Origin: Escherichia coli
GTDB lineage: Bacteria; Pseudomonadota; Gammaproteobacteria; Enterobacterales; Enterobacteriaceae
Direction: 5' to 3' (one strand)
Length of the DNA: 64,000 nucleotides
NCBI RefSeq assembly: GCF_036507355.1
Contig: NZ_AP027877.1
Shown here piece by piece: positions 1-16,187 of this stretch (position 1 is its first letter; each line of letters starts with the position of its first letter). The notes beneath the pieces were generated by a model. That model saw only the letters and a program-made list of their open reading frames with translations, searched no databases and was not told the DNA's origin. The position numbers were made by a program, and so were the translations under genes.

Positions 1-161
1 TGAAGGCCGCTGTCACTGGTCTGGGTCAGGCGGGTGGAGTACATCGCGCAGAAGGTCGAGTTGGTTATCATCTGAGCGTCAGCCTGCTCGTCGGCGAACG
101 CGCTGTGGCTGAAGGCGGAAAGCAGAATTGTGGCGGTTAACAGTTTTAAAATTTTCATCAT
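1..161 (-). CDS. Secreted protein, N-terminal part only (gene continues beyond window start)
   Basis: Minus-strand ATG at 161-159 gives MMKILKLLTATILLSAFSHSAFA/DEQ..., a typical Sec signal peptide; frame stays open to position 1. Not in the ORF track because it is truncated by the window edge. Confidence 0.4.
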   Translation of the reverse strand, partial: MMKILKLLTATILLSAFSHSAFADEQADAQMITNSTFCAMYSTRLTQTSDSGL

Positions 162-453
162 GTTCCCTTATGGATTGAAAAGCGGAGACAGCCTGCCATA
201 CAGGGTGGTCAGGAGATGTCCGGCAGAGAAAAAAGTCAGGGTTTCAGCGAGGGAGCCAGTCGCCAGCGGTGAGGGCCAGCAGATTCGAGCACAAAGGCCA
301 GTTGAGCGAGGTCCCGTCTTGCGGTCCGGGGAGATACGTCAAACTGCCGGATGATGTAGCGAACAGATATTGTCTGACCGTAAAACAGCACCATGGTCAG
401 CCGGATGAGCCGTTCTCCCTGTCCGGTAGCGTGTTGCCTGCGACGATTAACGT

Positions 454-918
454 TCATCGTTGCCATACGCGCCATCGGTCCCCTTTCTGAAAAGAATCGA
501 GGTGTCTGGCAAGCCAGATATCAGGGCATGAATTGCCGGTAACGCAGCGGGCAGTAAACCGGTGGCAGTTAAAGTCGAGCAGGCTGTAGGGATAGCGCTG
601 ACCCACTGCCGCCTTTGCCCGTTCAGCGGCCTGCGCACAACCCTGAGGCGTCAAATCCATACAATCGGTATACACCGAGATAGCGGAGTTCCAGCCATCG
701 AGCCGGTCAAGAAACCCTTTAGCCTTACTTTTGATAACGGTTCCATCGCCATCAAGATGAACAATATCGCCGTTACCCACATAGATACCGCTGTGTGCGG
801 CAAGGCCAAAAAGCAGTTCGCACTGCACGATACCACCGTAAGCCGGTTCATCGACGCAGGAGAGAATGCAGTTATCGATAAATGAATCCACGAAGTTCAG
901 CAGCAGAAGCCGGTACAT
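454..918 (-). CDS. Permuted NlpC/P60 (LRAT/YiiX-like) Cys-His hydrolase-family protein
   Basis: ORF 454-1089; likely start at internal Met (MYRLLLL...). His-box HSGIYVGNGDIVH precedes Cys-box NCHRF, the LRAT-type permuted order. Confidence 0.45.
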   Translation of the reverse strand: MYRLLLLNFVDSFIDNCILSCVDEPAYGGIVQCELLFGLAAHSGIYVGNGDIVHLDGDGTVIKSKAKGFLDRLDGWNSAISVYTDCMDLTPQGCAQAAERAKAAVGQRYPYSLLDFNCHRFTARCVTGNSCPDIWLARHLDSFQKGDRWRVWQR

Positions 919-976
919 AACATTCAGTTCCTTACTACGGGGGAGAGGGGGGATGCGGGGGAAACGTAGTGAACAC

Positions 977-1405
977 TCAGCTTTCCCACAACGTACGGAC
1001 CGTGAAAACCCCCATATCGTGGTAAGCCATAAAGTTACTTTCCCATAGCGACCAGAACTCACGGGCGTCGACATGAGAGATATCGCCACAACGGGAAAGC
1101 CACGTGTATTGTTGCGTCCAGCTCACATCGACATCTTTTTCAAGCTCAGGCCATGGATGCCCTGCATAATGAAAATCGGTGACGTAATCGAGCTGCCAGT
1201 CTTCTCCGGCAGGGATGAGGCGTATTTCGACCGGATGCCAGCCGCCCTTTTCCGGTGAGTATTCAGGGTCACGGAAGTTAATGGTTAATCCGGTGATGGG
1301 GTGACGATGAGGCGGTTTTTGCGCGAGGATATCCAGAAGCAGTTGGGTGAACGACCGGGAGAGAGGCAGCACATAGCCGCCCTGCAATATTACGGGTGAT
1401 GACAT
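977..1405 (-). CDS. Hypothetical protein (142 aa)
   Basis: Six-frame ORF, same strand and tight spacing with neighbouring ORFs; no family recognised. Confidence 0.4.
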   Translation of the reverse strand: MSSPVILQGGYVLPLSRSFTQLLLDILAQKPPHRHPITGLTINFRDPEYSPEKGGWHPVEIRLIPAGEDWQLDYVTDFHYAGHPWPELEKDVDVSWTQQYTWLSRCGDISHVDAREFWSLWESNFMAYHDMGVFTVRTLWES

Positions 1406-1451
1406 AGTGAATTTCCTGATTTTTGGTTAACAGAACACAGAAAAAGCGGGG

Positions 1452-1883
1452 TTAGTCCTGGCTGAGCGTAGCAAGCTGCGTCATACGATGCTGCCAGTCG
1501 GCATAGCAGCGGTGCATAAAGAGTCTGCTGCTGTCCGCTTCGATAAGGCAGATATCCGGACTTCTGAGTACGGCGGCAAGAAACCCGGCGTTGTTGGTGC
1601 TGCCCTGACCAAATAGTGGTCGAAACACACGCGACGGAAAGCTGTCCTGCTGCTGTTCAAGAATGGCGTGAATCGCATCAAGCGTTATCCATTCACGGGA
1701 GAACAGGCCTCCTTCGCCATTGGCGGTTAAGCGCAGGGCGAGGCTTCCGGTTTCATCCTCCTTACCCAGCTCATACGTCAGCAGTCCCTTACTGTGTGGA
1801 CTGATTTTCTCGGCTTCACCCCTGTAGAACACGGTATAGCTTTCGGTGACGGCGGCTTCGGTAGCGACTTTTTTCTTACTCAT
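1452..1883 (-). CDS. Hypothetical protein (143 aa)
   Basis: Six-frame ORF in apparent leftward operon; no family recognised. Confidence 0.4.
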   Translation of the reverse strand: MSKKKVATEAAVTESYTVFYRGEAEKISPHSKGLLTYELGKEDETGSLALRLTANGEGGLFSREWITLDAIHAILEQQQDSFPSRVFRPLFGQGSTNNAGFLAAVLRSPDICLIEADSSRLFMHRCYADWQHRMTQLATLSQD

Positions 1884-2247
1884 GGTTCAGCGCCTCAATC
1901 AGGTTCTGGAGTTGAGTGATAACGGTCGTGTCCGGGAACACCAGATAGATACCCTGTCCGTTATCGCAGACGATACCGAGCAGGAGATACCAGCCATCAT
2001 CAAGTGCGGTGACGTATTCCGGGTTAGCCAGTGCCACTGCCAGCAGCGGGTCTTCGGGGAGGGTGTCATCGTGGTTGAGATGCCAGAGCAGGGTTCTTGT
2101 TTCTTTCCAGAAAGCAGTAAACAGGTCGATATCATCTACGGGGCCAAGAATTTCATTGCTGAGGGCTTCCAGCGCGGAGGCTGGCAGGTTGAGAAGGGAA
2201 ATACTGGTAGGGGTTGTGAGTTTGTACATAGTTATCTCCATCATCAA
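1876..2247 (-). CDS. Hypothetical protein (117-123 aa)
   Basis: ORF with GGAG Shine-Dalgarno upstream of the internal Met (MYKLTTP...), so the start is probably 2229; stop overlaps next gene start by 8 nt. Confidence 0.4.
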   Translation of the reverse strand: MMMEITMYKLTTPTSISLLNLPASALEALSNEILGPVDDIDLFTAFWKETRTLLWHLNHDDTLPEDPLLAVALANPEYVTALDDGWYLLLGIVCDNGQGIYLVFPDTTVITQLQNLIEALNHE

Positions 2248-2457
2248 TCGAATATCATGGAAATAATATGTGTCCGTTTTAAGGGCTATTACAGGCTTGG
2301 TGTGTTGGATTTGTTTTTCTTATTACGAACAAATAGCGACTGGCTCAGGCCGGGATTGTTTAGAGACAGATTCAGCATAGATTCGTAAAAATAAAAACTA
2401 TTAGCGCGAGATCCTCTGTTTATGCCGTGACAGTTAACTGATAGGAGGCTTGTTGGT

Positions 2458-3161
2458 TGGATTTGCCCCTATATTTCCAGACACCTGTTATCACTTAACC
2501 CATTACTGGCCCGCTGCCGCAGATATTCCCGTGGCGAGCGATAACCCAGCGCACTATGCGGATGCCATTCGTTATAATGCTCGAACGCCTCTGCAAGGTT
2601 CTTTGCTGCCGTTAACCCGTCTGGTTTGGGCATGATACTTATGTAGTCACGCTTTATCGTTTTCACGAAGCTCTCTGCTATTCCGTTACTCTCCGGACTC
2701 CGCACTGCCGTGTTCTTCGGTTCAAGTCCCAACATCCTGGCGAACTGACGTGTTTCATTCGCCCGGTAGCATGAACCATTATCCGTCAGCCACTCCACTG
2801 GAGACGCCGGAAGCTCGCTGCCAAAGCGGCGTTCCACTGCTCCCAGCATGACGTCCTGTACTGTTTCACTGTCGAAGCCACCCGTTGTGACCCCCCAGTG
2901 CAGTGCCTCACGGTCACAGCAGTCCAACGCGAACGTGACCCGCAGTTTTTCTCCGTTATCACAGCGGAACTCAAACCCGTCAGAGCACCATCGCTGATTA
3001 CTTTCTTTCACAGCCACTCTGCCGGTATGTGCCCGTTTCGATGGCGGTACAGCGGGTTTTCGCTCAAGCAACAGCGCATTCTGGCGCATGATCCGGTAAA
3101 CACGTTTGGCATTGATCGCAGGCATACCATCAAGTTCTGTTTGTCTGCGAAGCAGCGCCCA
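2458..3161 (-). mobile_element. IS2 remnant: right inverted repeat plus 3' part of orfB (IS3-family transposase), 5' portion deleted
   Basis: ORF 2469-3125 matches the IS2 OrfB C-terminal region as I remember it (...[36 protein letters not shown]...[12 protein letters not shown]); terminus TGGATTTGCCCCTATATTTCCAGACA at 2458. Similarity stops abruptly near 3161. Confidence 0.8.
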
Positions 3162-3636
3162 TAACGCAGCCCTTGCCTTACTGGTGTTTCTGGCCCTGAC
3201 CGGATTACGCCTTGGTGAAACCCGTTATCTTCTGCTTGAGGATATCGACTGGTCCCGTCAGACCATCACTTTGCGAGAAACTAAAAACGGTAAGCTTCGC
3301 TGTGTGCCAGTGGGTGATAAGGCCTTTGTTCTTCTGACTGAGCAGCGCCAGCACTTGGGCGATAAAGGCTGGGTTTTCCCCGGCTATAACACAACTAATC
3401 CGGTTGCAGAACCACGCCGTCTGCAAAAGCGTATATGTGAGAAAGCCGGTATTTCACCATTCACTATTCATGAGATGCGACACACTTTCGCCACGAAACT
3501 TATCGAGAGTGGGGCTGACATCCATACCATCAAAGATTTACTGGGCCACAGCACCATAAAGGTTACCGAGAGGTACCTACATGGCAGCCCGGTGCGCTAC
3601 CACGAGGCCATTAACAAGGCGATGGATACGTTCTAG
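3160..3636 (+). pseudogene. Tyrosine recombinase (phage-type integrase) C-terminal catalytic fragment, N-terminus missing
   Basis: ORF 3106-3636 carries integrase catalytic motifs (HEMRHTFAT, LLGHSTIKVTERYLH) but only ~160 aa; directly abuts the truncated IS2 segment. Confidence 0.7.
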
Positions 3637-3717
3637 GTATAAGCATAACTATCCACAGGCAGGTTAGTTCCTTTTTCCCTGCACGCGATTTATCTGTTTT
3701 TAATTGAGGATTAGATA

Positions 3718-5643
3718 ATGAATAACATAGTGACACCCGCCCCCTTAACGACAATGGCGCGTTTTGCCTGTTCGAAACTGAATGGATTTCTGGCTCGTCG
3801 GGCTTTGCATCAGGCAAATGCGAAGAAAATCCTTAAAAAGGCAATTGCAATCAGCATTGCGGTCGATGAGATTTCGGCAAAAGGGGGGCGTGATGGTCTG
3901 CCTGATGGGTTTGTTAACTCACCGCATGGGCTTTTTTATGATGATGGCAAAAAAGTGTTTCAGCTCAGTTCTACTGCTATTGTTCCCGTCAGCAGGCATT
4001 ATTCAGCGTGTAAGAAGCGCAATATGGGTGTCGAACTCATGACCATTAATCATGCGGGTCAGTATGTCTGCGCTGAAATTTCACTGAGCAACGTTACGCT
4101 AAACCCCGATAGTGTGATTGGCTCCCTGACAGCGCAAGGTTTCGGTATCCCTATGACGGTAAAGACGAAAGAGCTGTTGGCGCAGTTCTTACAGACATGT
4201 ATGAAGCAAGCGCTGGCTCTCCCTACCTACCTTGTCGCTGATTCAATGGGATTTGTACCCGGCAAGAAAGCGTTCTTACATGGCAATATGCCTTTAGCAC
4301 AGAACATCCCTGGGTTTGATTACCTTATTTCCGTTCAGCGTACACCCGCAGGGATCGTTGAGTCCGGCACGCTGGATGCGTGGAAGGCTCTGGTGAAAAA
4401 GAATGTCCATGGATGGCCACAGATTTTTGCATTGTGTTCTGCCTTTGCGTCCATGCTGGTTGCATTGTGTAAAATGGATGTGGCGATGTTTCACTTCTAT
4501 GGTGGGTCAACGACTGGAAAAACGATCCTTCTCCAGCTTGCGATGTCAGTTCATGGTCATGGCGGGGAGCCGGGAAGTGGAAAGCTTGTCAATGTTCTTC
4601 GCTGGAATACCACGGTGAATGCGCTAGAGAAGCGACTGAGTCAGTTCTCAGGCCTGCTGGCATGTGTGGATGAGTTGGGGGCTTATAAACAAAAGGACTT
4701 CGCTTCGCTCCTGTACAACATTACCGCCGGTCAGGGTAAAAGCAGAATGGACAAGAATCTGGATATACGTGAGCTTTATACATGGGAAATGTTAATTCTC
4801 TCCGCAGGTGAAATGTCCATTTCTGAGAAGCTAGCGACGGAAAAAGAACATCTTCAGGGTGGACAGGAACATCGCGCCATTAGCCTCAATGTTTTGCCTG
4901 AAGATGCCCGTAAAGACGGCGAATCATCAGAAAGGGTACGCTGCCGCGCTGATAGTCTGAAAAATGGCCTGAGTGAAGTTTATGGTACGGCGGGTAAGGA
5001 ATTTATTGCTAATTTGCTGGCACTGGATAATGACGATGATGAACCGCAGTCCTGGGATGAAATGTGCCTGTCTATTCAGGGGGCAGTAGAAGAACAACGT
5101 GACAGTCTTGTCGGTGAGCTGCAGGAAGAAGGTTATGCACTTAGTGACATTCAGCTGCGTGCATTAAAACGATTTTCCCTATGTTTGTGTGCCGGAATCC
5201 TGGCAGCATCATGGAATATCCTTCCGTTCAGTGAAGATATTATTAAGGGTGCGGTAATGAGCGCGGCTCGTCGCTGGCTGGATGATAAACCAAACCAGTA
5301 TAGCCCACTAAAGCAGGTGCTTACGGCTATCCAGCACGATCTTCTCACAACCAGAGCGTCCCATTTAATGCCGTTGCTTGATGAGGATGCGCATACCCCA
5401 TACAACCACTGGGGGTACACGGATAAGAACGATAACATGATGATTTTCGCTCCTGTTTTTGAAGGCTGGTGTGCCAAAAAAGGCATTAAACCTGCTGATG
5501 TGGCGAAAGCATTGGCAAAAAAAAATCACCTCAAACCAGAAAGTCAGGGCCACTACAAAAAACGTCCTCAGAAGGGAGTTCAGCAACCTTTTTATCTGGT
5601 TATGAATACATTTCTTGGCTGTAACATTGGCGCTGACTTTTAA
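3718..5643 (+). CDS. DUF927-like protein with P-loop NTPase (primase/helicase-like replication protein of integrative elements)
   Basis: 641-aa ORF with Walker A GGSTTGKT and Walker B-like CVDELG; architecture recalled from P4-like/integrative-element replication proteins. Confidence 0.55.
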   Translation: MNNIVTPAPLTTMARFACSKLNGFLARRALHQANAKKILKKAIAISIAVDEISAKGGRDGLPDGFVNSPHGLFYDDGKKVFQLSSTAIVPVSRHYSACKKRNMGVELMTINHAGQYVCAEISLSNVTLNPDSVIGSLTAQGFGIPMTVKTKELLAQFLQTCMKQALALPTYLVADSMGFVPGKKAFLHGNMPLAQNIPGFDYLISVQRTPAGIVESGTLDAWKALVKKNVHGWPQIFALCSAFASMLVALCKMDVAMFHFYGGSTTGKTILLQLAMSVHGHGGEPGSGKLVNVLRWNTTVNALEKRLSQFSGLLACVDELGAYKQKDFASLLYNITAGQGKSRMDKNLDIRELYTWEMLILSAGEMSISEKLATEKEHLQGGQEHRAISLNVLPEDARKDGESSERVRCRADSLKNGLSEVYGTAGKEFIANLLALDNDDDEPQSWDEMCLSIQGAVEEQRDSLVGELQEEGYALSDIQLRALKRFSLCLCAGILAASWNILPFSEDIIKGAVMSAARRWLDDKPNQYSPLKQVLTAIQHDLLTTRASHLMPLLDEDAHTPYNHWGYTDKNDNMMIFAPVFEGWCAKKGIKPADVAKALAKKNHLKPESQGHYKKRPQKGVQQPFYLVMNTFLGCNIGADF

Positions 5644-5818
5644 GAGGGAGCAGGAATAGAGATTAAATAATATAAGGTTAATTAAGATTTTCCGTGCCGT
5701 AATTTAAATTGTAGGATCCGGAAATATAATCTGAATGCTCAGAGGGCAGGTTGTGCACAAAATGGGCATTTAATTTTTTAATTATTCAACATATATATCA
5801 ACTAAAGGTAATTTTAAA

Positions 5819-6238
5819 ATGTATCATACAACTCCTGATGAATGTCCTGAGTTTCCACAGGCGATTAGTTCCGAAAATGTGGGGAAAGTAAAATTTACAC
5901 GTTACAGGCTCTTAATGACACAGGCTCAATGCAATTTTTATGGTATTCAACGAGAGATTTTTGATGGCGAATTTCCTGCTCTTAGAGCAATTGTTAAAGG
6001 TGATTTTCAAATCGAATTTTTTGTGAAATATAAGTGTAGAGGGCTGGATTACTATGGTTCTCTTGGTGATTGGCCTCATATGACAATTAGTGATGCAAAA
6101 GAAATCGCAGAGGGAGTTTTCAATAACTGCGATGACTCCCACCGTAATAACTGGGAGGGTGAAAATGATAGCGATAGTATCGAAGAAGACATGATGAGCT
6201 ATTTTGAAAATGGTATTCCATTCGGCAATAATTCATAG
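5819..6238 (+). CDS. Hypothetical small acidic protein in very AT-rich segment
   Basis: 139-aa ORF with no recognisable family; surrounding 5640-6300 is conspicuously AT-rich. Confidence 0.35.
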   Translation: MYHTTPDECPEFPQAISSENVGKVKFTRYRLLMTQAQCNFYGIQREIFDGEFPALRAIVKGDFQIEFFVKYKCRGLDYYGSLGDWPHMTISDAKEIAEGVFNNCDDSHRNNWEGENDSDSIEEDMMSYFENGIPFGNNS

Positions 6239-6335
6239 GTTTATACTGGATTTTCACGTCAGTAACGAAATCGAAATTCGCACATGAAAACATCTATATC
6301 TATGAGGTAGTTACTTATCGATAAACGACTGTGAA

Positions 6336-6364
6336 AGCAGAGGGGCGGCCCCTCTGCTTTTTTT
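6336..6364 (+). terminator. Rho-independent terminator hairpin between convergent genes
   Basis: GCAGAGGGGCGGCCCCTCTGC stem followed by a T-run. Confidence 0.5.
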
Positions 6365-6365
6365 G

Positions 6366-7553
6366 CTACAACGTATCGGGTAACTGAGCGCGGATACGTT
6401 CCGCCAGTAACTGACTGGTGTTCTGTAAGCGCTGAGGATGAAGATGTGCATAACGCTGTGAAGACTGACTGCTACGGTGCCCCAGTTGAGCCTGAACGTC
6501 ATATAGCGTACCGCCGTAGGACACGATGAGGGCGGCAACCGAATGGCGGCAGGTATGGATACACACTTCCTTGTCGAAAATTCCCGCCCGACGCACGATA
6601 CGCTGAAAGGCTTTAACCGGGTTACTCAGCGGCATTCCCTGTTTTTTACCAATAAACAACCACGGATTTCCCCGCTGCGTTGGCAGCGTTCTGATTACGT
6701 CCATCGCCAGTGAGTTAAGGTGAACAATCCGTCCATAGCCATTCTTGGTTTCAGGGAGCCACAGGGTGCGTTTAACCGGGTCAACATGCTCCCACTTTGC
6801 CAGACGCAGCTCATCGCGGCGAAGGCCGGTCAATAACAGCAGTTTGACATAGCGGGCAGCTACAGGGCTGGTATCGTTATCGGCGGAGAGAAAAATACGA
6901 CGAATTTCGTCCTCGGTAAAATAACGCTGTCGGGCGTTGTTCTCCCTGAGTAGCTGTACCACCCTTGCCGGATGAACAGAGGTCATGCTTTGCCTTCCGG
7001 CCCATGTAAAGACGGCTTTAATGAGTACGATGACACGGTTACAGGTAGCCGCTGACAGGGAAGTACTTAACGTCTGCTGAAGGCGCAGAATGCTCGCTGG
7101 TGTGATATCGCTCAGCAGCCTCTGACCAATGGCGGGACGGATATGATCGCGGTAGCGCTGAACATCCTTTCCCCAACTGCGTTTAGCGGATTTTGCCCAT
7201 GGCAGATAATGCTGATTAAAGAGTTCATCGAACGTCAGCTCCATTCTCTTGTTTTCACGCTCCTGCTTAGGGTCAGTGCCGGTGGCAAGGGAACGTTTGT
7301 GTTCTATGGCAATCTGACGGGCAAGATTGACGTCCACTTCAGGCCAGTGACCAATGGCGATGGCGCGTTTTCGTCCATGATAGAGGTAGCGGAGCAAAAA
7401 CTTTTTACGACCTTCTTTTCTGCTGACCAGACACTTGAGGCCGGAAATCTCGGTGTCGCTGTATTCGGCATCGGTGCTGCGTGCATCTGATGTGTTAGGG
7501 GGCAGTGATTTAATGAGCTGATTAGTAAAACGGAAGCGTTTGGGAGTGGACAT
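6366..7553 (-). CDS. int: P4-type tyrosine integrase
   Basis: 395-aa ORF with arm-binding-like N-terminus and catalytic R..HxxR..Y region (HTCRHSVAALIV, LGHRSSQSSQRYAHL); lies 7.3 kb from tRNA-Phe and is transcribed away from it. Confidence 0.85.
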   Translation of the reverse strand: MSTPKRFRFTNQLIKSLPPNTSDARSTDAEYSDTEISGLKCLVSRKEGRKKFLLRYLYHGRKRAIAIGHWPEVDVNLARQIAIEHKRSLATGTDPKQERENKRMELTFDELFNQHYLPWAKSAKRSWGKDVQRYRDHIRPAIGQRLLSDITPASILRLQQTLSTSLSAATCNRVIVLIKAVFTWAGRQSMTSVHPARVVQLLRENNARQRYFTEDEIRRIFLSADNDTSPVAARYVKLLLLTGLRRDELRLAKWEHVDPVKRTLWLPETKNGYGRIVHLNSLAMDVIRTLPTQRGNPWLFIGKKQGMPLSNPVKAFQRIVRRAGIFDKEVCIHTCRHSVAALIVSYGGTLYDVQAQLGHRSSQSSQRYAHLHPQRLQNTSQLLAERIRAQLPDTL

Positions 7554-7985
7554 ATAACCTCCTGTGACTGGTGTAAAGAACGTCAGGGTTGACCCATCCC
7601 CGGCACGGCGTTGTTAATGGCTAAGTTGATTTTCTGGCATGGCGAAGGGAATGCTGGTGCCACATGGTATGAATTAAGACGGGAAATGCAGAAAGAGCAG
7701 GCTTTACGGTCTGATTCTGGTCTTAAGGGAAAAGATTGCCGTTGGGGAAGAGTTCACAGAAATAATATGTGTTTCAGTCTAGAACAATTACATGCCATGA
7801 GGATCAAGAGAGTTGCCCGTATATGGCAGGTATCAAAGTTGGTTATGGATGTTGCCAAAACATAGTGGGGATGGATGTTGAAGTGCTAACTTGATGTTTT
7901 TAATGGGAAAGTGTAAATTGCGTGATGCGTTGCACTCATGTAGATAACACCATTGAAAGTATCAAATTGTTTGAAAAAAAATCAT

Positions 7986-8056
7986 CTTTGATCAACCTTA
8001 AGATTGTTTCTAGATGGTAAAATCTTCATATGGGAAAGAGCTCACTGGTAAGGAAG
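7986..8056 (+). promoter_or_regulatory. Putative promoter and RBS for the four-gene operon
   Basis: AT-rich divergent intergenic region; TTGATC ... TGGTAAAAT (extended -10-like) and AGGAAG 10 nt before the ATG at 8067. By eye only. Confidence 0.25.
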
Positions 8057-8066
8057 ACAAATCCTG

Positions 8067-9119
8067 ATGGGGATCATCGTACGAATTCTTAAAGCTAACC
8101 ATGGCGATTGCATTTTGGTGAGCCATGAAAGCGGTTCAGGCACTCTCAACTTGCTCATTGATGGGGGACCTGCGACGACATTCAGGTATGGCATTAGGCA
8201 GCGCTATTCTGGAGCATTGAGTAACGCTCTCGATGATCTGAAAGGAAAGGGGCAAAACATTGATCTGGCTATCCTGACCCACATTGATGATGATCACATA
8301 AATGGTTTTATCAAGGCATTCGAAAGTCCAAACTATCTGCGTCAGCTGGTTAAATCGATCTGGTTCAATTCTTCGAGGTTAATCACACATCATTTTAATG
8401 TGCCTGAAATTTGTGAAAATAATATTTTCTTGCAGGAAGTTTCCCCTGAAACTAGCGTTAAACAGGGGCAAGAACTTGAGGCATTACTTGATGAAATCGG
8501 ATGTGTGCGAGCACCGCTCATTATGGCAGGGCAAATCTACAAAGTAGGCCCGATTACTTTAACAGCACTTTCACCTGAACGAAGACAACTCGAACAGCTT
8601 TTGCATAAGTGGCCAACGGAAGTAAGTTCAGCTGACACTTCTTCATATGAGAATGATTATCACCGTTCATTGGACGAAATTTGGGCAGATGATAGATTTG
8701 AATCTGACTCATCTATTTATAATGGAAGCTCAATTGCATTTTTACTGGAAACAGATGACAAAAAAATGCTTTTTTTAGGAGACGCCAATGACCAAGTTGT
8801 TACAAAAAATTTAAGAGCATTGGGCTATAGCGAAACAAACAAGTTGAAGCTGGATCTGGTTAAAGTTTCGCATCATGGTAGTCAATACAACACAAGCAAC
8901 GAATTTCTTTCAATACTAGATTCTCCATGCTTTGTTATTTCAACCAATGGTTCGAAGCATGGTCTTCCTAATAAAAGGACTATTGCAAGGATCTTAAAGG
9001 AAACAGATGGTGATATTTATTTTAATTACAGCAATGTAATTACTCCGCTGCTTTTAGCGCATGAAGCTGAGAGCTATTCTTCTCGTCTAAAAGTGCTAGG
9101 TGATGAGATTAAATTCTAA
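8067..9119 (+). CDS. Metallo-beta-lactamase-fold hydrolase (putative nuclease)
   Basis: 350-aa ORF with MBL motifs in canonical order: LIDGG, THIDDDH (8278-8298), FLGDAN, VSHHGS. Confidence 0.7.
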   Translation: MGIIVRILKANHGDCILVSHESGSGTLNLLIDGGPATTFRYGIRQRYSGALSNALDDLKGKGQNIDLAILTHIDDDHINGFIKAFESPNYLRQLVKSIWFNSSRLITHHFNVPEICENNIFLQEVSPETSVKQGQELEALLDEIGCVRAPLIMAGQIYKVGPITLTALSPERRQLEQLLHKWPTEVSSADTSSYENDYHRSLDEIWADDRFESDSSIYNGSSIAFLLETDDKKMLFLGDANDQVVTKNLRALGYSETNKLKLDLVKVSHHGSQYNTSNEFLSILDSPCFVISTNGSKHGLPNKRTIARILKETDGDIYFNYSNVITPLLLAHEAESYSSRLKVLGDEIKF

Positions 9120-10419
9120 CATGACAGTTTACGAAATAATGCAGTCCCACTGCGTCATGGTTAATGGTGGCAGTGGTGTGCTAGTTAATGCAATGACACT
9201 GGATTACACATATGTACTGACTGCATACCATGTTATTCGTGACACTCTCGATAATATCGAAGTTACCGATCACAGTGGCAATAAACTTACAGTATTAGCT
9301 GTGCTCCTATATCCAGATATTAAATATTTGAACGAATCCCATAATGATTTCGCAATTTTAAAAATTGAATATCAACCAGAAGTTGCACAAAGTTGTTTTA
9401 CTGCTTCGACGTTGCCTCCTCGTGCTGAGCTTACATTAGTAGGATTTCCAAACACTGAAAGAAGGAGTTCGGATCCTATAAAATATTATGATGGACATAT
9501 GACTAGCGTGGTCGATGAGCTTGTCATTTTCACTGTTGATGGTGTACCAGGCTTAGCCACGATAAAGGGGATGTCAGGTGGAGGTGTATATCACATAGTT
9601 GGTAGAAATACATTTCTTGTTGGTGTTGAGTTTAGGATGGATGGCACTGAAGAGGAACAACAGTTTGGCCGAGTGCAATGCCATAGCTTAGCAAAGTTTG
9701 ATGAAATAATAAGAGCATACGATAGCGCACCGATGATTCCTGCCCATTTGGAATGCTTTTCTCGAATACAAGACAAAATATTTAAATTTAATGTTATTGA
9801 TCAAAACAATGTTCGTAATCTTAAAGATGCGTTAGAAGCCCTTTCCAGATCACTTATAGCTAGTGGGATGTCTCCGCCTTACAAAATCATGGGGCAATAT
9901 GGATTACAGCTTTTGATGGATCCCAAAACTCCTAATGAGCTCAGTAATAAAGAGTTATGGATTTCTTATTTTGAATTTTTAGTTATTTGCTCTGTGATAG
10001 ATAATGTTGGAATTGTGGATGATGCATATATAAAAAGCTTGGAGCGAAAGCGGCGGCTATTATATACCAGTAATGGTGCGAACTGGATTAGCCATTTGGA
10101 AGAACTACTCAAAACGGCACGAAAACTTTTAGATAAGGATGGCACTTTAATCGTTGCATCACCTGATGCTGCTGCAAGTGTCTTGCCTCCGAACTTTCGA
10201 CTTAAAAACGTAATAAGTAATATAGCGGTAGTGCCAAACCAGGGGCCGTTTGCTATCGATGAAGTTGAAAGTTCTATTTATACAAGCTTCAAATTAACTC
10301 ATCTGGAGGGACTCCGCAAAAGCTGCGTAATAGACCGTGAGGATGAATATCTAGTAGTTCCAGCAGGTGTACCACAATTGCAGTTATTTAAGGAGAAGCT
10401 TAATGAAATTATTAAGTAA
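9100..10419 (+). CDS. Trypsin-like serine protease domain fused to a ~250-aa C-terminal domain of unknown function
   Basis: His (LTAYHVI), Asp (NDFAILK), Ser (GMSGGGVY) in S1 order in the first ~170 aa. Start ambiguous (GTG 9100, ATG 9103 or ATG 9121); overlaps or abuts the upstream stop. Confidence 0.7.
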   Translation: MMRLNSNMTVYEIMQSHCVMVNGGSGVLVNAMTLDYTYVLTAYHVIRDTLDNIEVTDHSGNKLTVLAVLLYPDIKYLNESHNDFAILKIEYQPEVAQSCFTASTLPPRAELTLVGFPNTERRSSDPIKYYDGHMTSVVDELVIFTVDGVPGLATIKGMSGGGVYHIVGRNTFLVGVEFRMDGTEEEQQFGRVQCHSLAKFDEIIRAYDSAPMIPAHLECFSRIQDKIFKFNVIDQNNVRNLKDALEALSRSLIASGMSPPYKIMGQYGLQLLMDPKTPNELSNKELWISYFEFLVICSVIDNVGIVDDAYIKSLERKRRLLYTSNGANWISHLEELLKTARKLLDKDGTLIVASPDAAASVLPPNFRLKNVISNIAVVPNQGPFAIDEVESSIYTSFKLTHLEGLRKSCVIDREDEYLVVPAGVPQLQLFKEKLNEIIK

Positions 10420-10942
10420 GGAAGTCGATCTGAGTATTTTAAGTGTGAAATATGATAAAATCAGATTTCACATGTATTGCTCAGATGATCCACTTTCATT
10501 TATTTCCTGTATAGTATGTGTATGTGAGACTTCAGCCGATATTTTGGAGAATTGGCGTACTATTCAAAATGTGGTTTCTGTTCACTATCAACCATCGGGT
10601 GACTTAGCATCTTGGAATATGTATATTGTTTTTTTTACAACTGATGTTTTTCCTGTATGGGAAAAATATGAAATAGAAAACAATAAGTTTGCTGCTCGCA
10701 AGATAATTATTGATAAATTCTCAGGTGCCCCCACCTCTGCTCAGTTAGTTACTGAGTTGCAAAAATATTTGTTGGGAACAGACTTAAGACTTGATCCGCG
10801 AGTCAATGAGTCAAAAGAGGCTTTATTGTCTTTAGATAAATACGTTCGTGGTGCTCCATTAGATTCAAAGAATGAGTCCAGAGAAATCCGCGCCTCCATG
10901 GTCAATGAAATAATTAAATTTTTGAACAAAAATGAAAATTAA
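10403..10942 (+). CDS. Small protein of unknown function (possible adaptor component)
   Basis: 179-aa ORF from ATG 10403 with AGGAG upstream; overlaps previous gene end by 17 nt and next gene start by 11 nt. Confidence 0.55.
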   Translation: MKLLSKEVDLSILSVKYDKIRFHMYCSDDPLSFISCIVCVCETSADILENWRTIQNVVSVHYQPSGDLASWNMYIVFFTTDVFPVWEKYEIENNKFAARKIIIDKFSGAPTSAQLVTELQKYLLGTDLRLDPRVNESKEALLSLDKYVRGAPLDSKNESREIRASMVNEIIKFLNKNEN

Positions 10943-13900
10943 AAAAGTTGAGATTGAAGCATTTCGTGCCTACAAATCTAGGTCAGATGGCACGTTTGAT
11001 TTCACGAATGATGGAGATGTTGCTGCAAATTTTGTTGCGATCTATGCTCCGAATGGTTTTGGTAAAAGCTCCTTCTACGATGCTGTTGAATGGGCAATTA
11101 CCAATCACATGGCAAGACTTGGCGGAGAATATAATAAAGCTAATTATGAGAACGCTGCCAAAATCACCAAGGACGATAATGTTGGGCAAGAAATTTTACG
11201 TAATAAATATGTAGATAAAAATATACGCACAAAGGTAGTGGTATCAACCACTCGACCACTCCCTTTTGAGCGTAAACTACCCAAAGTCAGATCTAATGGG
11301 CGTGATTTGCGATTCGGAGATAATAGTCAAAGAGAAAATGATTTTTTCCGACAAGTGATTCTAAGTCAAGATGAAATTGATAGATTTCTCCGAGAAGCCA
11401 AACCGCAAGAGCGCTATACGAAATTTATGGAAAGTTTCGGTGGAGATATTGAAATTGCCCGTAAAGAGCTGTCAGTACTTATAAATGATAATAAGATTGA
11501 GTTGAATAATCTCAATAAAAAGAGAGAATCTATTCTTGAACAATTAAAACAACCAATAGATTCTTCAATTTTCCAAAAATTCAATTCTATTGCTGTTGAA
11601 TTGAATAAGTTGGGTGAAAATATTCAATTACCTGACGAGAGTTTTTCATCTCAAGATGAATATGCTCTTAATGTTAGTCTTATATCGCGACGCCATGAAC
11701 TCGACTCATCACGTTTAACGAACAATCGAACGGTAGAAGCACTGGAAGACAGGCTTCTAAAAATATCTGAAACTGAATTACATGTCCGCAGTTTAGCAGA
11801 ACAGAATTTACATCTTGCTAAATTAGTGAAAGGAGTGGCCGACGCTGATAGGTACCAATCACTTTTGGATTCATACGAAAAATGTGCAGAAGATCAGAAA
11901 ACCACACACATGCATATGACTCGTATTATAGAAGTGATTGATTGCCTTGATGATTTTCTAAAAATTGAGTCTCATCTTCTTGAGTTGTCTACTAGCCAAA
12001 AGATAATTTCTGAAGAACGCACCAAGATCTGTGCGCAGCTTGCAGGTTTTGAAACAACAATTAATCAATTGAATAAGGAGCTTAAGGCTGTAGATGATAG
12101 GGTCGCTATACTTAGGAAGACCGTTGATAACGCCGGGCAAGTATATTTGGAGCTCGCAAATAACCGGGCTCGGGTAAGTAACCTAACACAGCAAATATCA
12201 AAAAAAGAAGTTTCTATTAAGATAGATAAATCTAGGCTTGGGGAGTTGAATCGTGAGTTGACTAGACTTTCTGAACTCAATATTAATGCCACCTCATTAT
12301 CAAACGGAAATCTAGGGACCTTACTTTTAGAACCTACGAAAGTTGAGCAGCTGACGAGATGTTACGCCGAGTTTGATGTGATTGAATCACAAATTCAAGC
12401 TGTGCATGTTACTCAAAAAGCATTATCTGAACAGATGGAATTGCATGAACGACTGATTGCCATTGGAATTGACTATCTTAGTGTACGACCATCCAGTATC
12501 TGTCCTTTATGTACAGCTCCTCACCCATCTGCGGACGGTTTACTGGATAAAATTAAAGGGCGGAACCTTTTATCAGAATTAAGTGAGGAGAATTCTAAAC
12601 AGCTTTTATTTTTCTCTACACGTCAGAAAGAAATTCTTCAATCAATTCAGGATATTACTCAGTGCGCAATTGATTCAAAGGCTCAGTTGATTATTAACTT
12701 AAACAAGGAATTGAGTGAGACTGACGAGAGACTTACTCTTGCAGGTAGAGATATATATTCAATAGAAGCAGAGTTAAAGACTCTTGAGAAACGGACCACA
12801 GAGTTAGAAAGTTTAGTTTGGGCACTTTCACATGATGAACTGGTATCCCGAATTGAAAAAGAAATTGGTGAGCTTTCAATCAAAAGTTCAAAGCTCCTAG
12901 AAGGAAAAGCATTAATTACCCCTCAGGTTGAAATGCTTAATGAATCACTCAAAGAAAAAGACTCTGCGCAGCAAAAAATAGCTTCGGAGTTGGAAGGTAT
13001 CTTTAGCGGAAATATCTACATTACAGTTTATAAATACTTAAATGAAAATGCGATTTCGTCTTCATCCCTCAAAAGTCATACTGAAAAAAGGAAACTAGAG
13101 ATTGAGGCTGAAATAATTAAGTGTAAAACCACTATTGAGTTTTTGACTGAACAATGTGCTGTTTTACAGCAAAAAATGTTAAGTGATGGTATGTGGGTGG
13201 ATTTTGTTCAGTTGAAGCTGCAAAAAGAATCTTTAGAAATAAGTGTTGCCCGCTCTCAATCAGTAATTAACACGTTTTATGAGAGTTTATCTAACCTTAT
13301 AATTATCCGTCCTGAGTACAGTCTTGAAAAAGTCAAAGAGCTCATAGCTGCGAAAGTTCAGGATTGCCATCTTCGTACGAAAGAATTTGATAGGCTCTCA
13401 AATAATATTAATTTACTCATAGAACTTATGAGTTCGTTTAAGCCATATATTAAACATACAGCTCTTCAGAAAGATTTAATGGCTGAAGAGATGTTAATAA
13501 AACAGCGTGAACGGGTCGACACTACTTTAACCGCAGAAAGAGATGCAATAGTGGATAGCCTGAAACTTCTTATCAATAATTTCTTCTATGAAGATCTTAT
13601 TAATTCTATTTATAAGAAGATAGATCCGCATCCTGCCTTTAAAAAAGTAGAGTTTAAGGCTGACTTTGATTCTGATAAGCCAGGCCTAAATATTGTGGTT
13701 AGTGATGAGGTTGGAGAGCAAATCTCGCCAATACTTTATTTCAGTGCGGCTCAAACGAATATTCTAAGCTTAAGTGTCTTTTTAGCTAGTGCACTTCATG
13801 CGAAAGACGATGAGGGTAATCCCATCAATGTTGTTATGATTGATGACCCAATTCAGTCAATGGATTCGATTAATATACTCTCTACGATAGATCTTTTAAG

Positions 13901-14063
13901 AAGTATATGTGTTCAATTTGATAAACAAATTATTATTTCAACGCATGATGAAAACTTCTTTGCCTTACTCCAGCGCAAAATCCCTGCCCAAATTTTTGGA
14001 TCTAAATTCTTGCAATTGGAAAAGTTTGGTGTAGTCGTCCCGGTGCAACCCTTTGTGAACTAA
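10932..14063 (+). CDS. SbcC/Rad50-like ABC ATPase with long coiled coil and central CxxC zinc hook
   Basis: 1043 aa: Walker A NGFGKSS (Lys codon 11064-11066), Q-loop ILSQDE, CPLC at 12501-12512 (residues 524-527, mid-protein), signature-like FSAAQ, Walker B VVMIDDP, H-loop STHDE. The middle ~600 aa are heptad-rich and Leu/Glu/Lys-rich. Confidence 0.8.
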   Translation: MKIKKVEIEAFRAYKSRSDGTFDFTNDGDVAANFVAIYAPNGFGKSSFYDAVEWAITNHMARLGGEYNKANYENAAKITKDDNVGQEILRNKYVDKNIRTKVVVSTTRPLPFERKLPKVRSNGRDLRFGDNSQRENDFFRQVILSQDEIDRFLREAKPQERYTKFMESFGGDIEIARKELSVLINDNKIELNNLNKKRESILEQLKQPIDSSIFQKFNSIAVELNKLGENIQLPDESFSSQDEYALNVSLISRRHELDSSRLTNNRTVEALEDRLLKISETELHVRSLAEQNLHLAKLVKGVADADRYQSLLDSYEKCAEDQKTTHMHMTRIIEVIDCLDDFLKIESHLLELSTSQKIISEERTKICAQLAGFETTINQLNKELKAVDDRVAILRKTVDNAGQVYLELANNRARVSNLTQQISKKEVSIKIDKSRLGELNRELTRLSELNINATSLSNGNLGTLLLEPTKVEQLTRCYAEFDVIESQIQAVHVTQKALSEQMELHERLIAIGIDYLSVRPSSICPLCTAPHPSADGLLDKIKGRNLLSELSEENSKQLLFFSTRQKEILQSIQDITQCAIDSKAQLIINLNKELSETDERLTLAGRDIYSIEAELKTLEKRTTELESLVWALSHDELVSRIEKEIGELSIKSSKLLEGKALITPQVEMLNESLKEKDSAQQKIASELEGIFSGNIYITVYKYLNENAISSSSLKSHTEKRKLEIEAEIIKCKTTIEFLTEQCAVLQQKMLSDGMWVDFVQLKLQKESLEISVARSQSVINTFYESLSNLIIIRPEYSLEKVKELIAAKVQDCHLRTKEFDRLSNNINLLIELMSSFKPYIKHTALQKDLMAEEMLIKQRERVDTTLTAERDAIVDSLKLLINNFFYEDLINSIYKKIDPHPAFKKVEFKADFDSDKPGLNIVVSDEVGEQISPILYFSAAQTNILSLSVFLASALHAKDDEGNPINVVMIDDPIQSMDSINILSTIDLLRSICVQFDKQIIISTHDENFFALLQRKIPAQIFGSKFLQLEKFGVVVPVQPFVN

Positions 14064-14559
14064 AGTGCTTGCACTGCCTCTAAACAATCTGCATGCACAT
14101 CTCGTTGACTAAATTTGAAACGAGATGTGCATTGCTCGTTATAAAAATAAGGCATGTTCTAATTATCCAATCCCCATCAGTATAAGTGGGTGGATAGATA
14201 TATTTGGCCCCTTTAACAGATATGTTAATTTCCACTTTTCGCTTACAGTGGACCTGCAGCTCAGTAACTTACTCACTTTGTGCTAGGAACGGGCATTGCT
14301 AATAGTCAGAGTGTATGACCTGCTCATCGTTGATTAAGGACAGCGCTGTACTGGTTCGTTGAACCCACGGCTCACAACGGACACTCAGGTTATTATTCCA
14401 ATACGTTTAGCTCAAGTAGTATTACTACGGATAAATCATTTTATGATGGCGTGGAGAACGGGGGGATTCTGAAAATGGTAAGAAGTGAAAGGGCAAGAAG
14501 AGCTTGTTGCAGGTGGACGGACTGGTGAAGATTCCCATCTGGAGGGTGTATGCTGCCAA

Positions 14560-14730
14560 GTTTCCCCGCTTGCTATTGGGGATTTCCCCACCTTATTCCC
14601 CGCGACAAAATCATGTTAAGACCAGCGGATTAAGGAGAAATGATAATTCCCCCGTTTTCCCCGTATTTTCTACTTCATTATGAATGATCTGAGAGAAAGG
14701 AACCGTAGAGGACCGTAGAAAGACCGTAGC
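14560..14730. repeat. Clustered short direct repeats (five TTCCCC motifs at 14561-14663; three ACCGTAG repeats at 14702-14729, ~10-11 bp phasing)
   Basis: Read directly from the sequence in the 840-bp non-coding stretch between the operon and tRNA-Phe. Confidence 0.4.
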
Positions 14731-14899
14731 AGTGAGGTTAGGAAAAGGTACATCAGAGGATGTTGAGGTGTCTAAAAGTAACGAACATCTGCGAAAATGG
14801 CGAGAAATCCAGCAAACAAATAACGTGTTGCAACGACCAGAAATCTACCGTAGCCAAGAAAGGAAAAAGCCCCGCTTTGCAGCGAGGCCTTATGAATAT

Positions 14900-14975
14900 T
14901 GGTGCCCGGACTCGGAATCGAACCAAGGACACGGGGATTTTCAATCCCCTGCTCTACCGACTGAGCTATCCGGGC
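14900..14975 (-). tRNA. pheV: tRNA-Phe (GAA anticodon)
   Basis: Reverse complement reads GCCCGGATAGCTCAGTCGGTAGAGCAGGGGATTGAAAATCCCCGTGTCCTTGGTTCGATTCCGAGTCCGGGCACCA, the E. coli tRNA-Phe as I remember it; position next to yqgA-speC indicates pheV. Confidence 0.95.
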
Positions 14976-15080
14976 AACGGGGCGCATTAAACCTGATTCG
15001 CCTCGTCTCGTCAATCAAATTTCTTCAATTTACTGCAGACTGCACAATCTATCATCACTTTGCCGCTATTGCACGCATTG

Positions 15081-15790
15081 TCAGGCAAACCAGGCGGTCC
15101 AGGTGGCGGAAAGCGGCATTGCCAGAAGGAGTGCTGGAAGCATGTTGACCACCGGGAACATTTTAATGCCACAGATGCGTAATCCGGTTGCCAGCAGCAA
15201 TAAACCGCCTACGGCGCTGAAGTCTGCCATCATCGACGGTGTGGTCAGCGGTAATATCAGCGCGGCAGCCCACGCCAGCGTTAACTGGATGATCAGTAAT
15301 GGGATACTAATTACCGACACCGCAATACCCAGCGAGCAGGCGAAGATCATCGCCGTAAAGAAATCAAGAAATGACTTGGCGATTAAAATACTCGGATCGC
15401 CGGTCATCCCTTCGTTCATCGCCCCGAAGATCCCGGTGCCGCTGGCGCAAAACAGGACAATAATCGCGACATAATTCTGAATAAAAGATTCATGCGCTGG
15501 CTTCTTACGTGAGTGACGAAACAGATTTTGTGCTTTGGCGACCGCTGTATTGACGCCTTTCTCCAGCAGACAAATTTCGCCGATTAATGCTCCGAGTAAG
15601 GTTGCTAAAACCATCGCCGGAAGGTTGGCGCATTTCACCACCAGTAAAATACCAATCCCCAGCGATGCCAGACCAAAAATAGATGTCATGGAGACGCGCG
15701 GATACGTTCCGGTAAGCGTTGGCTGAGCAGTGCGCCGAGAACGCCACCCAGTAATACTGCACTAGCGTTGATAAAAGGGCCGATGACCAC
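15081..15790 (-). pseudogene. yqgA: DUF554 inner-membrane protein, apparently frameshifted near codon 33
   Basis: 202-aa ORF (15081-15689). The 101 nt upstream (15690-15790, GTG start) encode a hydrophobic N-terminus in another frame ending in a stop. 33+202 = 235 aa, the length I recall for YqgA. Confidence 0.55.
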
Positions 15791-16187
15791 AAGAGTTCCT
15801 GTTAACTGTATTGTTTGATTTTCTTATTATGAACTTTTTGCCTTGTTGATGGCTTGTCTGGTCGCAAAGTCCTGGCTTGCACGCTTTAGCGAAAGGTGCC
15901 ATGATTGCGCGAATTTTCTCCTCTCTGTACGGAGTTTGCCCGATGCACGCCACCTCCTTACATTCTCTCGCTTATCGCCGCTTCGCGCGAAACTCTTCTC
16001 TTTTTATGCTACTGCTCATGCGGTGAAGTTAGCGCACGCTCACTGCAGGACAACAGTAAAATCAGAGCGTTTCTGCTTTTACTGATGTCTGGCGGTCGGA
16101 GCTGGTGACCAGTTTGACCCATATCTCATGGGGCAGGGTTTTCCACCTTGTCCGGTATTCTTACTTCCCCGAAACGGGTTTGCGCTT

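Follow-up and report, generated by a model that had tools for sequence, protein, structure and literature searches.

Pipolins are currently defined by piPolB, which may act as their replicase or be carried as cargo. The core of gammaproteobacterial pipolins comprises piPolB, an IntSXT-type integrase near the tRNA gene, an IntP2-type integrase near piPolB, DUF2787, WYL and two orphan genes, and rare "piPolB-less, pipolin-like islands" are mentioned in passing only (PMC11551731, 2024). Another group of described systems is formed by Cch of the SCCmec elements and the Reps of Staphylococcus aureus pathogenicity islands (SaPIs), which are loader-independent initiator-helicases that bind the origin via a C-terminal winged-helix domain and translocate in the 3'-5' direction (PMC9371898). 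DUF927 proteins are also syntenically conserved in gammaproteobacterial integrative islands, namely, as MGIVchHai6 gene 86 and MGIVflInd1 cds8 of the mobilizable genomic islands (MGIs; PMC7449626, PMC4958241). In this study, a stretch of 64,000 nucleotides from Escherichia coli (contig NZ_AP027877.1; hereafter the window) was analysed, with emphasis on an intact DUF927 gene and a small AT-rich open reading frame (arm-ORF) that lie between two tyrosine integrase genes, int1 and int2, on a genomic island at tRNA-Phe. We estimate at about 60% the probability that int2, DUF927 and arm-ORF, together with int1, make up the core that maintains a pipolin-like defence island, one that lacks piPolB and has a self-loading helicase as its replication module. 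The island belongs to a family that is undescribed although not new in category, namely, pipolin-like defence islands at tRNA-Phe that carry a Cch/Rep-type helicase instead of piPolB, together with an unusual free-standing gene for an arm-binding domain.

Island backbone and its relation to pipolins

The genes of the core and backbone are as follows (window coordinates, strand, description):
3718-5643, +, DUF927 protein, 641 amino acids, intact (Pfam PF06048, Foldseek, AlphaFold2 [AF2])
5819-6238, +, arm-ORF, 139 amino acids, with a domain at residues ~43-104 and an acidic C-terminal tail (AF2, Foldseek, hhalign)
3161-3636, +, int2 remnant, C-terminal 157 amino acids, catalytic domain (Pfam Phage_integrase, E 1.6e-29)
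6366-7553, -, int1, intact P4-like tyrosine integrase of 395 amino acids (Pfam Arm-DNA-bind_3, Phage_int_M, Phage_integrase)
1876-2229, -, orphan-117, island backbone
1452-1883, -, orphan-143, island backbone
977-1405, -, DUF2787 (Pfam E 1.4e-32)
454-918, -, LRAT-family gene, island backbone
236-475, -, DeoR-like helix-turn-helix (HTH) gene, island backbone

Because its backbone is homologous to the gammaproteobacterial pipolin core, the island can be classed, judging from sequence, as a piPolB-less, pipolin-like island, which lacks the defining gene of pipolins and appears to share the rest of their core. Compared with the Vibrio proteolyticus pipolin (L015; labels of this form denote loci of relatives), the identities were 34% for int1 (1e-62), 30% for orphan-143 (E 4e-26), 27% for orphan-117 (E 2e-8) and 38% for DUF2787. 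Compared with enterobacterial pipolins, int1 was 46% identical to the tRNA-proximal integrase, orphan-143 50-54%, orphan-117 31-40% and DUF2787 42-46%, and int2 was 27-28% identical to the piPolB-adjacent integrase. An HTH-WYL regulator was detected at L001:5018-5731 (WYL 22.0 bits, cutoff 21.8) in the island of YZ22MPE54, the closest relative, whose complete island is given by L001 and L013. These matches place the genes within the pipolin backbone, with the IntSXT and IntP2 classes assigned from position. The hallmark gene piPolB was not found in the window or in the complete YZ22MPE54 island by tblastn with a Vibrio piPolB query (E 1e-3), and the same query at this threshold detected enterobacterial piPolBs at 35-37% identity.

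One genome per species was scanned for relatives of orphan-143, which yielded 49 loci, and flanks of up to 10 kb were analysed by tBLASTn. DUF927 was present in 14 loci and piPolB in another 14; no locus carried both, and 21 carried neither. DUF927 and piPolB are thus mutually exclusive on the shared backbone. The genome of Buttiauxella warmboldiae CCUG 35512 carries both a DUF927 island at tRNA-Phe (L020) and a piPolB pipolin at tRNA-Leu (L033); therefore, the two families can coexist in one genome.

The gene order of the family is tRNA-Phe, variable cargo, int1 →, ← (arm-ORF), ← DUF927, ← int2, followed by orphan-117 →, orphan-143 →, DUF2787 → and LRAT. This order recurs at tRNA-Phe in E. 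coli G3/10, Edwardsiella, Enterobacter, Tatumella, Buttiauxella, Kluyvera, Pseudocitrobacter and Citrobacter, and a looser core of int1 →, ← DUF927, ← integrase was observed in Limnobaculum and Cedecea (helicase 29-31% identical) and in Massilia and Telluria (25%). The four-gene core is found in at least 14 species-level loci, Betaproteobacteria included. Enterobacterial pipolins at tRNA-Leu(taa) are arranged as int1-like →, orphan →, orphan-143 →, DUF2787 →, cargo, ← piPolB, ← orf, ← Xis, ← int2-like. In both families, therefore, the second integrase and the replication gene are coupled in an operon reading against int1.

The island and the pipolins share integration at a tRNA gene with direct repeats, an int1-like integrase of the P4/SXT type near the tRNA gene, the orphan-orphan-DUF2787 triad, a WYL regulator, a second tyrosine recombinase that heads an operon ending in a replication gene, variable defence cargo and frequent truncation of the second integrase linked to insertion sequences (IS). 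They differ in the replication gene (piPolB in pipolins, the DUF927 helicase here), in the target (tRNA-Leu(taa) against tRNA-Phe) and in the location of the second-integrase operon, which lies beyond the cargo in pipolins and between int1 and the triad here. The island also has no Xis-like gene after int2, has arm-ORF in some lineages and carries an LRAT-family gene after DUF2787.

The existence of a sister family with a helicase that is exclusive of piPolB speaks for the backbone as the mobile unit, on which a polymerase or a helicase fills a replaceable role in replication or maintenance. A broader proposal, to which we give somewhat less than even odds, is that the pipolin chassis (orphan/orphan/DUF2787/WYL plus integrase) would be an independent mobile platform with an interchangeable replication module, that the tRNA-Phe islands would be an unrecognized sister lineage extending from Enterobacterales to Burkholderiales, and that the free arm-binding domain would regulate recombination or origin use in some lineages. 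The options seen on the chassis are piPolB, the Cch/Rep-type DUF927 helicase and possibly PolA-like or superfamily 3 (SF3) helicase genes. The last two come from metagenome-assembled loci of an unclassified gammaproteobacterium and a Methylovulum, in which a family-A-polymerase-like gene lies 3' of an int1-like integrase (L045:8649-10391) and a D5_N/DUF5906/Pox_D5 helicase gene lies right after one (L058:10904-12862); both may be further alternative replication modules. The E. coli system, present in ~2% of complete genomes, is tractable for examining the role of DUF927 on gammaproteobacterial islands and a free arm-binding domain as a recombination regulator. The window itself holds an ordinary defence island with a core damaged by an IS, and its practical message is modest.

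Two DUF2787 homologues, P0039 and P0041, were considered as pipolin leads and set aside as belonging to RadC-linked element types of another kind. A different element type is also represented by L016:4754-12323, which carries DUF2787, RadC, a short integrase, AlpA and a 544-residue DUF927 protein; therefore, DUF2787 and DUF927 also co-occur outside the tRNA-Phe island family.

Helicase gene and arm-type domain

The DUF927 protein matched Pfam PF06048 at residues 82-350 with E 4.5e-34 and 118.8 bits (cutoff 22.6). The ATPase motifs, namely, Walker A (GGSTTGKT, 261-269), Walker B (D318-E319) and the basic residues K341/R343 that follow it, were invariant in 15 homologues. The AF2 model of the protein, built with these 15 homologues, reached a pLDDT of 83.7 and a pTM of 0.72, and its predicted domains are an N-terminal domain, an ATPase core and a C-terminal helical and winged-helix-like domain. 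Its best Foldseek match was Cch (5DGK; E 2e-21, TM 0.77, ~596 aligned columns), followed by the SaPIbov1 Rep initiator-helicase (8TCH; E 2e-16, TM 0.71) and then by MCM subunits and other AAA+ helicases, so that the predicted three-domain fold is Cch/Rep-like over the full length. A sequence search of the PDB returned the same two proteins as sole relatives (5DGK, E 1e-12; 8TCH, E 1e-10). By its motifs and its predicted full-length fold, the DUF927 protein is identified as a Cch/Rep-type AAA+ initiator-helicase.

The first-pass annotation had proposed a P-loop protein of 641 residues and the replication-type DUF927 kind found in integrative elements, located between an intact and a truncated integrase and followed by an AT-rich ORF of 139 residues. 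Both ORFs were recovered, and the domain and fold searches led to DUF927 and Cch/Rep and not to an unrelated ATPase family. The label "P4-like" was not borne out: DUF927 was the sole Pfam match, no primase, Toprim, AEP, D5_N or Pox_D5 domain was found in the protein, and the nearest structures were the MCM-like Cch and SaPIbov1 Rep, not the SF3 P4-alpha protein. The NCBIfam model of SCCmec Cch1 (NF047345) scored 74.6 bits against a cutoff of 700 with residues 216-374 alone aligned, and the protein is a distant relative of Cch1 and no orthologue.

Mean identity among the homologues was 63% in the ATPase core and 34-46% in the N- and C-terminal domains, and the ratio of nonsynonymous to synonymous substitution (dN/dS) of 0.14-0.21 indicates purifying selection. 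A second homologue search, for which 15 DUF927 sequences were combined into a profile, added no clusters beyond the same 20; the subfamily is narrow. Approximately a dozen genomic contexts of this subfamily were inspected, and all were inside the tRNA-Phe island family. In the phage and plasmid collections, relatives were at most 27% identical (at most 26% in the phage collection). Two plasmids, L069 (NZ_CP061753.1) and L070 (NZ_CP056646.1), which are circular, untyped and non-mobilizable, of 14-16 kb, and from E. coli and Citrobacter, carry a DUF927 protein (22-23% identical to that of the window) as the sole candidate for a replication protein that could be recognised; since gene entries in PLSDB are incomplete, this association is a hint only.

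In comparison with SCCmec Cch and SaPIbov1 Rep, the protein shares the DUF927/AAA+ core, the fold over its full length (TM 0.71-0.77), the order of the N-terminal, ATPase and C-terminal helical/winged-helix domains, and its encoding on a site-specifically integrating island beside the recombinase genes. It differs in sequence (14-19% identity only), in its Gram-negative host, in its tyrosine recombinase partners, whereas Cch is paired with serine Ccr recombinases, and in the absence of an adjacent primase or CCPol-like gene; SaPIs have an iteron origin downstream of the gene, and none was found downstream of the DUF927 gene in the window. The MGI genes, which are likened by description only, similarly stand in operon-like clusters with recombination factors on gammaproteobacterial islands carrying type I restriction-modification (R-M) and other cargo. 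However, the MGI proteins have 558 residues, have an HTH regulator and Xis as neighbours and are controlled by AcaCD/SetCD, and the MGIs use trmE or yicC as integration sites and carry MobI, whereas the gene annotations consulted for the present island showed no mob gene.

Compared with G3/10, the flanks were 95-97% identical in DNA and int1 was 98.7% identical in protein, whereas int2 was 75%, DUF927 44.6% and arm-ORF 42% identical. Because this divergent module sits within near-identical flanks, the int2-DUF927-arm-ORF segment behaves as an exchangeable cassette, a real mosaicism of another kind than that proposed by the first-pass annotation. Of 5,426 complete genomes of E. coli, 4 carried the window-type module and 121 that of the G3/10 type, and the L011-type module had no Megablast match.

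The AT-rich ORF downstream of the helicase gene has a G+C content of 37.9% and is preceded by a spacer of 175 bp with 30.3% G+C. Because its reading frame is kept in homologues at 34-47% identity, which in every context inspected lie directly downstream of the DUF927 gene in the same island core, arm-ORF is a real gene. Only seven relatives emerged when 1.84 billion cluster representatives were searched exhaustively. The protein had no match in Pfam (PF13356 included), NCBIfam, PHROG or PADLOC; the G3/10 homologue (46% identical) gave a sub-threshold Arm-DNA-bind_3 score of 19.4 bits (cutoff 27). In the AF2 model (pLDDT 57 overall), residues ~43-104 reached 76-83 and formed four strands and a helix. 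The top three Foldseek matches were 3RMP, 3JTZ and 3JU0 (probability 1.0, E 3-6e-3), which are the three arm-type binding domains with solved structures from P4-like integrases, and the next match was a hundred-fold weaker. Independently, profile-profile alignment by hhalign matched the arm-ORF family to the N-terminus of int2 (probability 97.2%, E 3e-11, 84 columns) and of int1 (probability 96.4%, E 1e-9). The fold matches and these alignments identify arm-ORF as a free-standing DNA-binding domain of the arm type and a paralogue of the integrase N-termini. Residues ~43-104 share the predicted beta-sheet-plus-helix fold of the arm-type domains (PF13356), but arm-ORF stands free of core-binding and catalytic domains and adds a family-specific N-terminal segment of ~40 residues and the acidic tail.

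Non-coding features of the segment are as follows:
3637-3717, +, int2-DUF927 spacer with a weak 5-bp GCAGG...CCTGC hairpin
5644-5818, +, AT-rich spacer (30% G+C) with a predicted promoter-like site at 5703-5730 (TTTAAA-16-TATAAT)
6334-6360, no strand, 13-bp perfect inverted repeat AAAGCAGAGGGGC/GCCCCTCTGCTTT with T/A runs, bidirectional terminator

The hairpin in the int2-DUF927 spacer was not significant in the window, and hairpins at the equivalent site were stronger in three relatives (z -2.7 to -5.6; L005:9927-10000, L007:9929-10000 and L009:9899-10000), with the GCAGG/CCTGC core in common; these hairpins may serve as an attenuator, a terminator or a binding site. The predicted bidirectional terminator separates int1 from the convergent operon, and its core GCAGAGG...CCTCTGC was kept in all variants (L003, L005, L007, L009 and L011). 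This core is conserved though the adjoining helicase genes of the variants share only 41-67% identity, and it lies just where the divergent cassette has its right-hand breakpoint.

Proposed role and competing explanations

By analogy with Cch and the SaPI Reps, we infer that the DUF927 protein would bind an origin and act as an ATP-dependent 3'-5' helicase, and thereby serve in replication of the island. In the proposed mechanism, int1 would excise the island at its 50-bp repeat to form a circle, the DUF927 protein would bind the origin of the circle via its C-terminal domain, and its hexamer would assemble without a loader and unwind 3'-5' for the host primase and polymerase. This action would keep or amplify the excised island, which is the role that piPolB is thought to have in pipolins. 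The int2 recombinase would act on the circular form, e.g. in multimer resolution or an alternative recombination reaction. In the least certain step, the arm-domain protein may bind integrase arm-type sites and modulate the directionality of recombination.

Several observations weigh against this proposal. No origin or iterons above shuffled sequences were detected by repeat finding and k-mer enrichment in the window and five relatives (the sequence 3' of DUF927, the spacer that separates it from int2, and the divergent intergenic region), and the gap between DUF927 and int1 is only 42-84 bp in variants without arm-ORF. The helicase has no accompanying primase or polymerase. In the only experimental test of a DUF927 gene from a gammaproteobacterial island, deletion of MGIVchHai6 gene 86 left excision, mobilization and integration unchanged, with replication unreported (PMC7449626). 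The physical slots of the two replication genes differ, as DUF927 lies between int1 and the triad and piPolB lies beyond the cargo, and the 21 of 49 backbone loci with neither gene (some on truncated contigs, with flanks of at most 10 kb) are to be considered as well. The arm-ORF model is moderately confident only (pLDDT 76-83 over ~50 residues, seven-sequence alignment), and the gene is missing from several lineages.

The int2-DUF927-arm-ORF block could instead be what is left of another integrative element, separate in origin and inserted beside int1, in keeping with the first-pass description of the island as a mosaic of at least two decayed elements. The two tyrosine recombinases are only 29% identical, base composition is uneven across the block (47.6% G+C in DUF927, 52.4% in int1 and 51% in the flanking chromosome), and the block is a divergent cassette within near-identical flanks. 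In pipolins the triad directly follows int1, so that the block looks inserted between int1 and orphan-117, and tandem accretion at tRNA-Phe is known from YZ22MPE54, in which an integrase lies past the distal repeat. Against these points, at least 14 species-level loci, Betaproteobacteria among them, keep the four-gene order, the inspected contexts of the DUF927 subfamily are confined to the tRNA-Phe island family, and the genes are under purifying selection with int2 intact in relatives; pipolins, too, couple a second integrase to a replication gene. In YZ22MPE54, a single 50-bp repeat pair bounds the island. A repeat search revealed no internal tRNA-Phe attachment (att) remnant in the window, the interval between the two integrases included, and no direct repeats, the mark of a nested element, around the int2-DUF927 block in three variants. 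Because the order is conserved and neither att remnant nor flanking repeats were found, two accreted decayed elements are contradicted, and an origin of the block from a second element is judged quite unlikely.

The DUF927 protein might also be an accessory or cargo ATPase, whether an anti-phage or anti-plasmid effector or a helper-dependent mobilization factor, with no role in replication. Apart from this gene, the island serves as a platform for defence systems (Lamassu, type I R-M and GmrSD-like DUF262), allelic divergence to 44% identity within near-identical flanks resembles that of arms-race genes, the MGIVchHai6 gene is dispensable for mobility and under the activator of a helper plasmid (PMC7449626), and no origin was found. 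However, no PADLOC defence model matched DUF927, arm-ORF or the backbone orphans, and the gene holds a fixed place in the conserved core beside the integrases, outside the variable cargo slots. Its predicted fold is, over the full length, that of two experimentally established initiator-helicases (PMC9371898), and mutual exclusion with piPolB on the shared backbone also speaks for a replication module; we therefore consider an accessory ATPase unlikely. Membership of the module in a P4-like or phage-inducible chromosomal island (PICI)-like satellite, with the helicase replicating after helper-phage induction, would account for the PHROG matches to phage 'DNA primase/helicase' families (best phrog_8841, E 4e-44), for a P4-type integrase at a tRNA gene and for SaPI Rep among the two closest structures. 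The protein has no primase domain, D5_N or Pox_D5, as described above, and neither the island genes scanned in the window nor the annotated relatives showed psu, sid, delta, cos, AlpA, capsid-redirecting or packaging genes. The relatives in the phage collection are remote, and the islands are variable in size (~14-31 kb) with mostly defence cargo. We consider this explanation very improbable.

Recent history and cargo of the island

The int2-DUF927-arm-ORF unit is crippled in the window by an IS3-linked deletion:
2458-3160, -, IS3-family fragment of ~0.7 kb, 3' part of the transposase gene (Pfam rve/rve_3)

Copies of the IS3 family with 99% identity to this fragment occur in 4,206 genomes of E. 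coli, and the fragment stands in place of 2,590 bp present in YZ22MPE54 (breakpoints by blastn, window 2457/3161 and L001 9410/12001). The deleted segment held a gene for a hypothetical protein of 398 residues, the int2 upstream region and int2 codons 1-234. In most relatives int2 is full-length (392-396 residues) and is the first gene of the unit, whereas the remnant in the window has lost the arm-binding and core-binding domains. The remnant is 100% identical, without substitutions, to residues 236-392 of L001 int2, a tyrosine recombinase of 392 residues; because these 157 codons are identical to those of the closest relative, the truncation is recent. The integrase remnant of the first-pass annotation results from a recent, IS3-linked 2.59-kb deletion in an element whose int2 is intact elsewhere. 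Because the int2 upstream region is deleted and promoter prediction gave no site in the spacer between int2 and DUF927, the helicase gene, although intact, may be silent or not properly expressed in the window.

The 398-residue gene, located at L001:9550-10746 between orphan-117 and int2 and without a Pfam match, occurs in the window-type islands L001, L002 and L004 and was not found in the other variants inspected. Assignment of a gamma-mobile-trio recombinase was dropped (GmtY 16 bits, cutoff 340). The intact int1, presumed to be the tRNA-Phe integrase of the island, has a dN/dS of 0.05-0.14 and ~95% nucleotide matches in other E. coli genomes. Upstream of int1, an ORF of 84 amino acids (7611-7865, +) is a conserved hypothetical gene in relatives (WP_001096211.1) without a domain match.

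The island is bounded in the window by the following features:
14900-14975, -, tRNA-Phe (pheV) (ARAGORN, Rfam)
14899-14948, island-proximal attachment repeat, matching the 50-bp perfect direct repeat at both island ends in YZ22MPE54
8067-14063, +, Lamassu-family (ABC-three-component) defence system of four genes (PADLOC E 1e-50 to 0, RefSeq names)

The window corresponds to the pheV region of E. coli, with yqgA, speC, nupG and mltC to the right of tRNA-Phe; all DNA from tRNA-Phe leftwards to the window start is island, which extends beyond the left edge of the window. The tRNA was the only match in an Rfam scan of window positions 1-16000. The YZ22MPE54 island is 99.7% identical over window positions 3161-15993 and is closed at its far end, 30.6 kb away from the tRNA, by a perfect 50-bp copy of the 3' end of tRNA-Phe; integration at tRNA-Phe with flanking direct repeats is thus apparent in this relative. 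BKQWHE carries the same island, cargo included, at the other tRNA-Phe gene (pheU) with 99.1% identity, and a helicase with 99% identity is reported for Citrobacter braakii. The pheV and pheU copies, the single repeat pair and the C. braakii helicase indicate that the island is one element, still mobile, which has moved recently between pheV and pheU. In a paper on pheV islands (PLoS Genet, PMC11537424), a second integrase, DUF domains and defence genes were unmentioned among the terms searched.

Identity to YZ22MPE54 was 97.6% to the left of the IS fragment (1-2457) and 99.7% to its right (3161-15993); the two sides of the deletion may therefore differ in recent history, possibly via recombination at the IS. 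Directly past the distal 50-bp repeat of YZ22MPE54, a further tyrosine integrase (L013:25588-27070) belongs to a second, IS-ridden island with fimbrial and toxin-antitoxin genes, which represents tandem accretion at pheV.

The Lamassu genes lie between int1 and tRNA-Phe and encode an MBL-fold LmuA, a protease-type LmuA, LmuC and an LmuB of 1043 amino acids, with a G+C content of 37.5%; the islands of relatives also carry type I R-M and GmrSD (GmrSD-like DUF262). This slot is a cargo hotspot (L003:10617-13805, L004:16933-19158, L007:13567-16070 and L005:14537-15178). It is almost empty in L011 and L018, and its contents in relatives include LysR with an alcohol dehydrogenase and a restriction endonuclease, DUF2971 with an endonuclease, a SIR2-like pair and YfdX.

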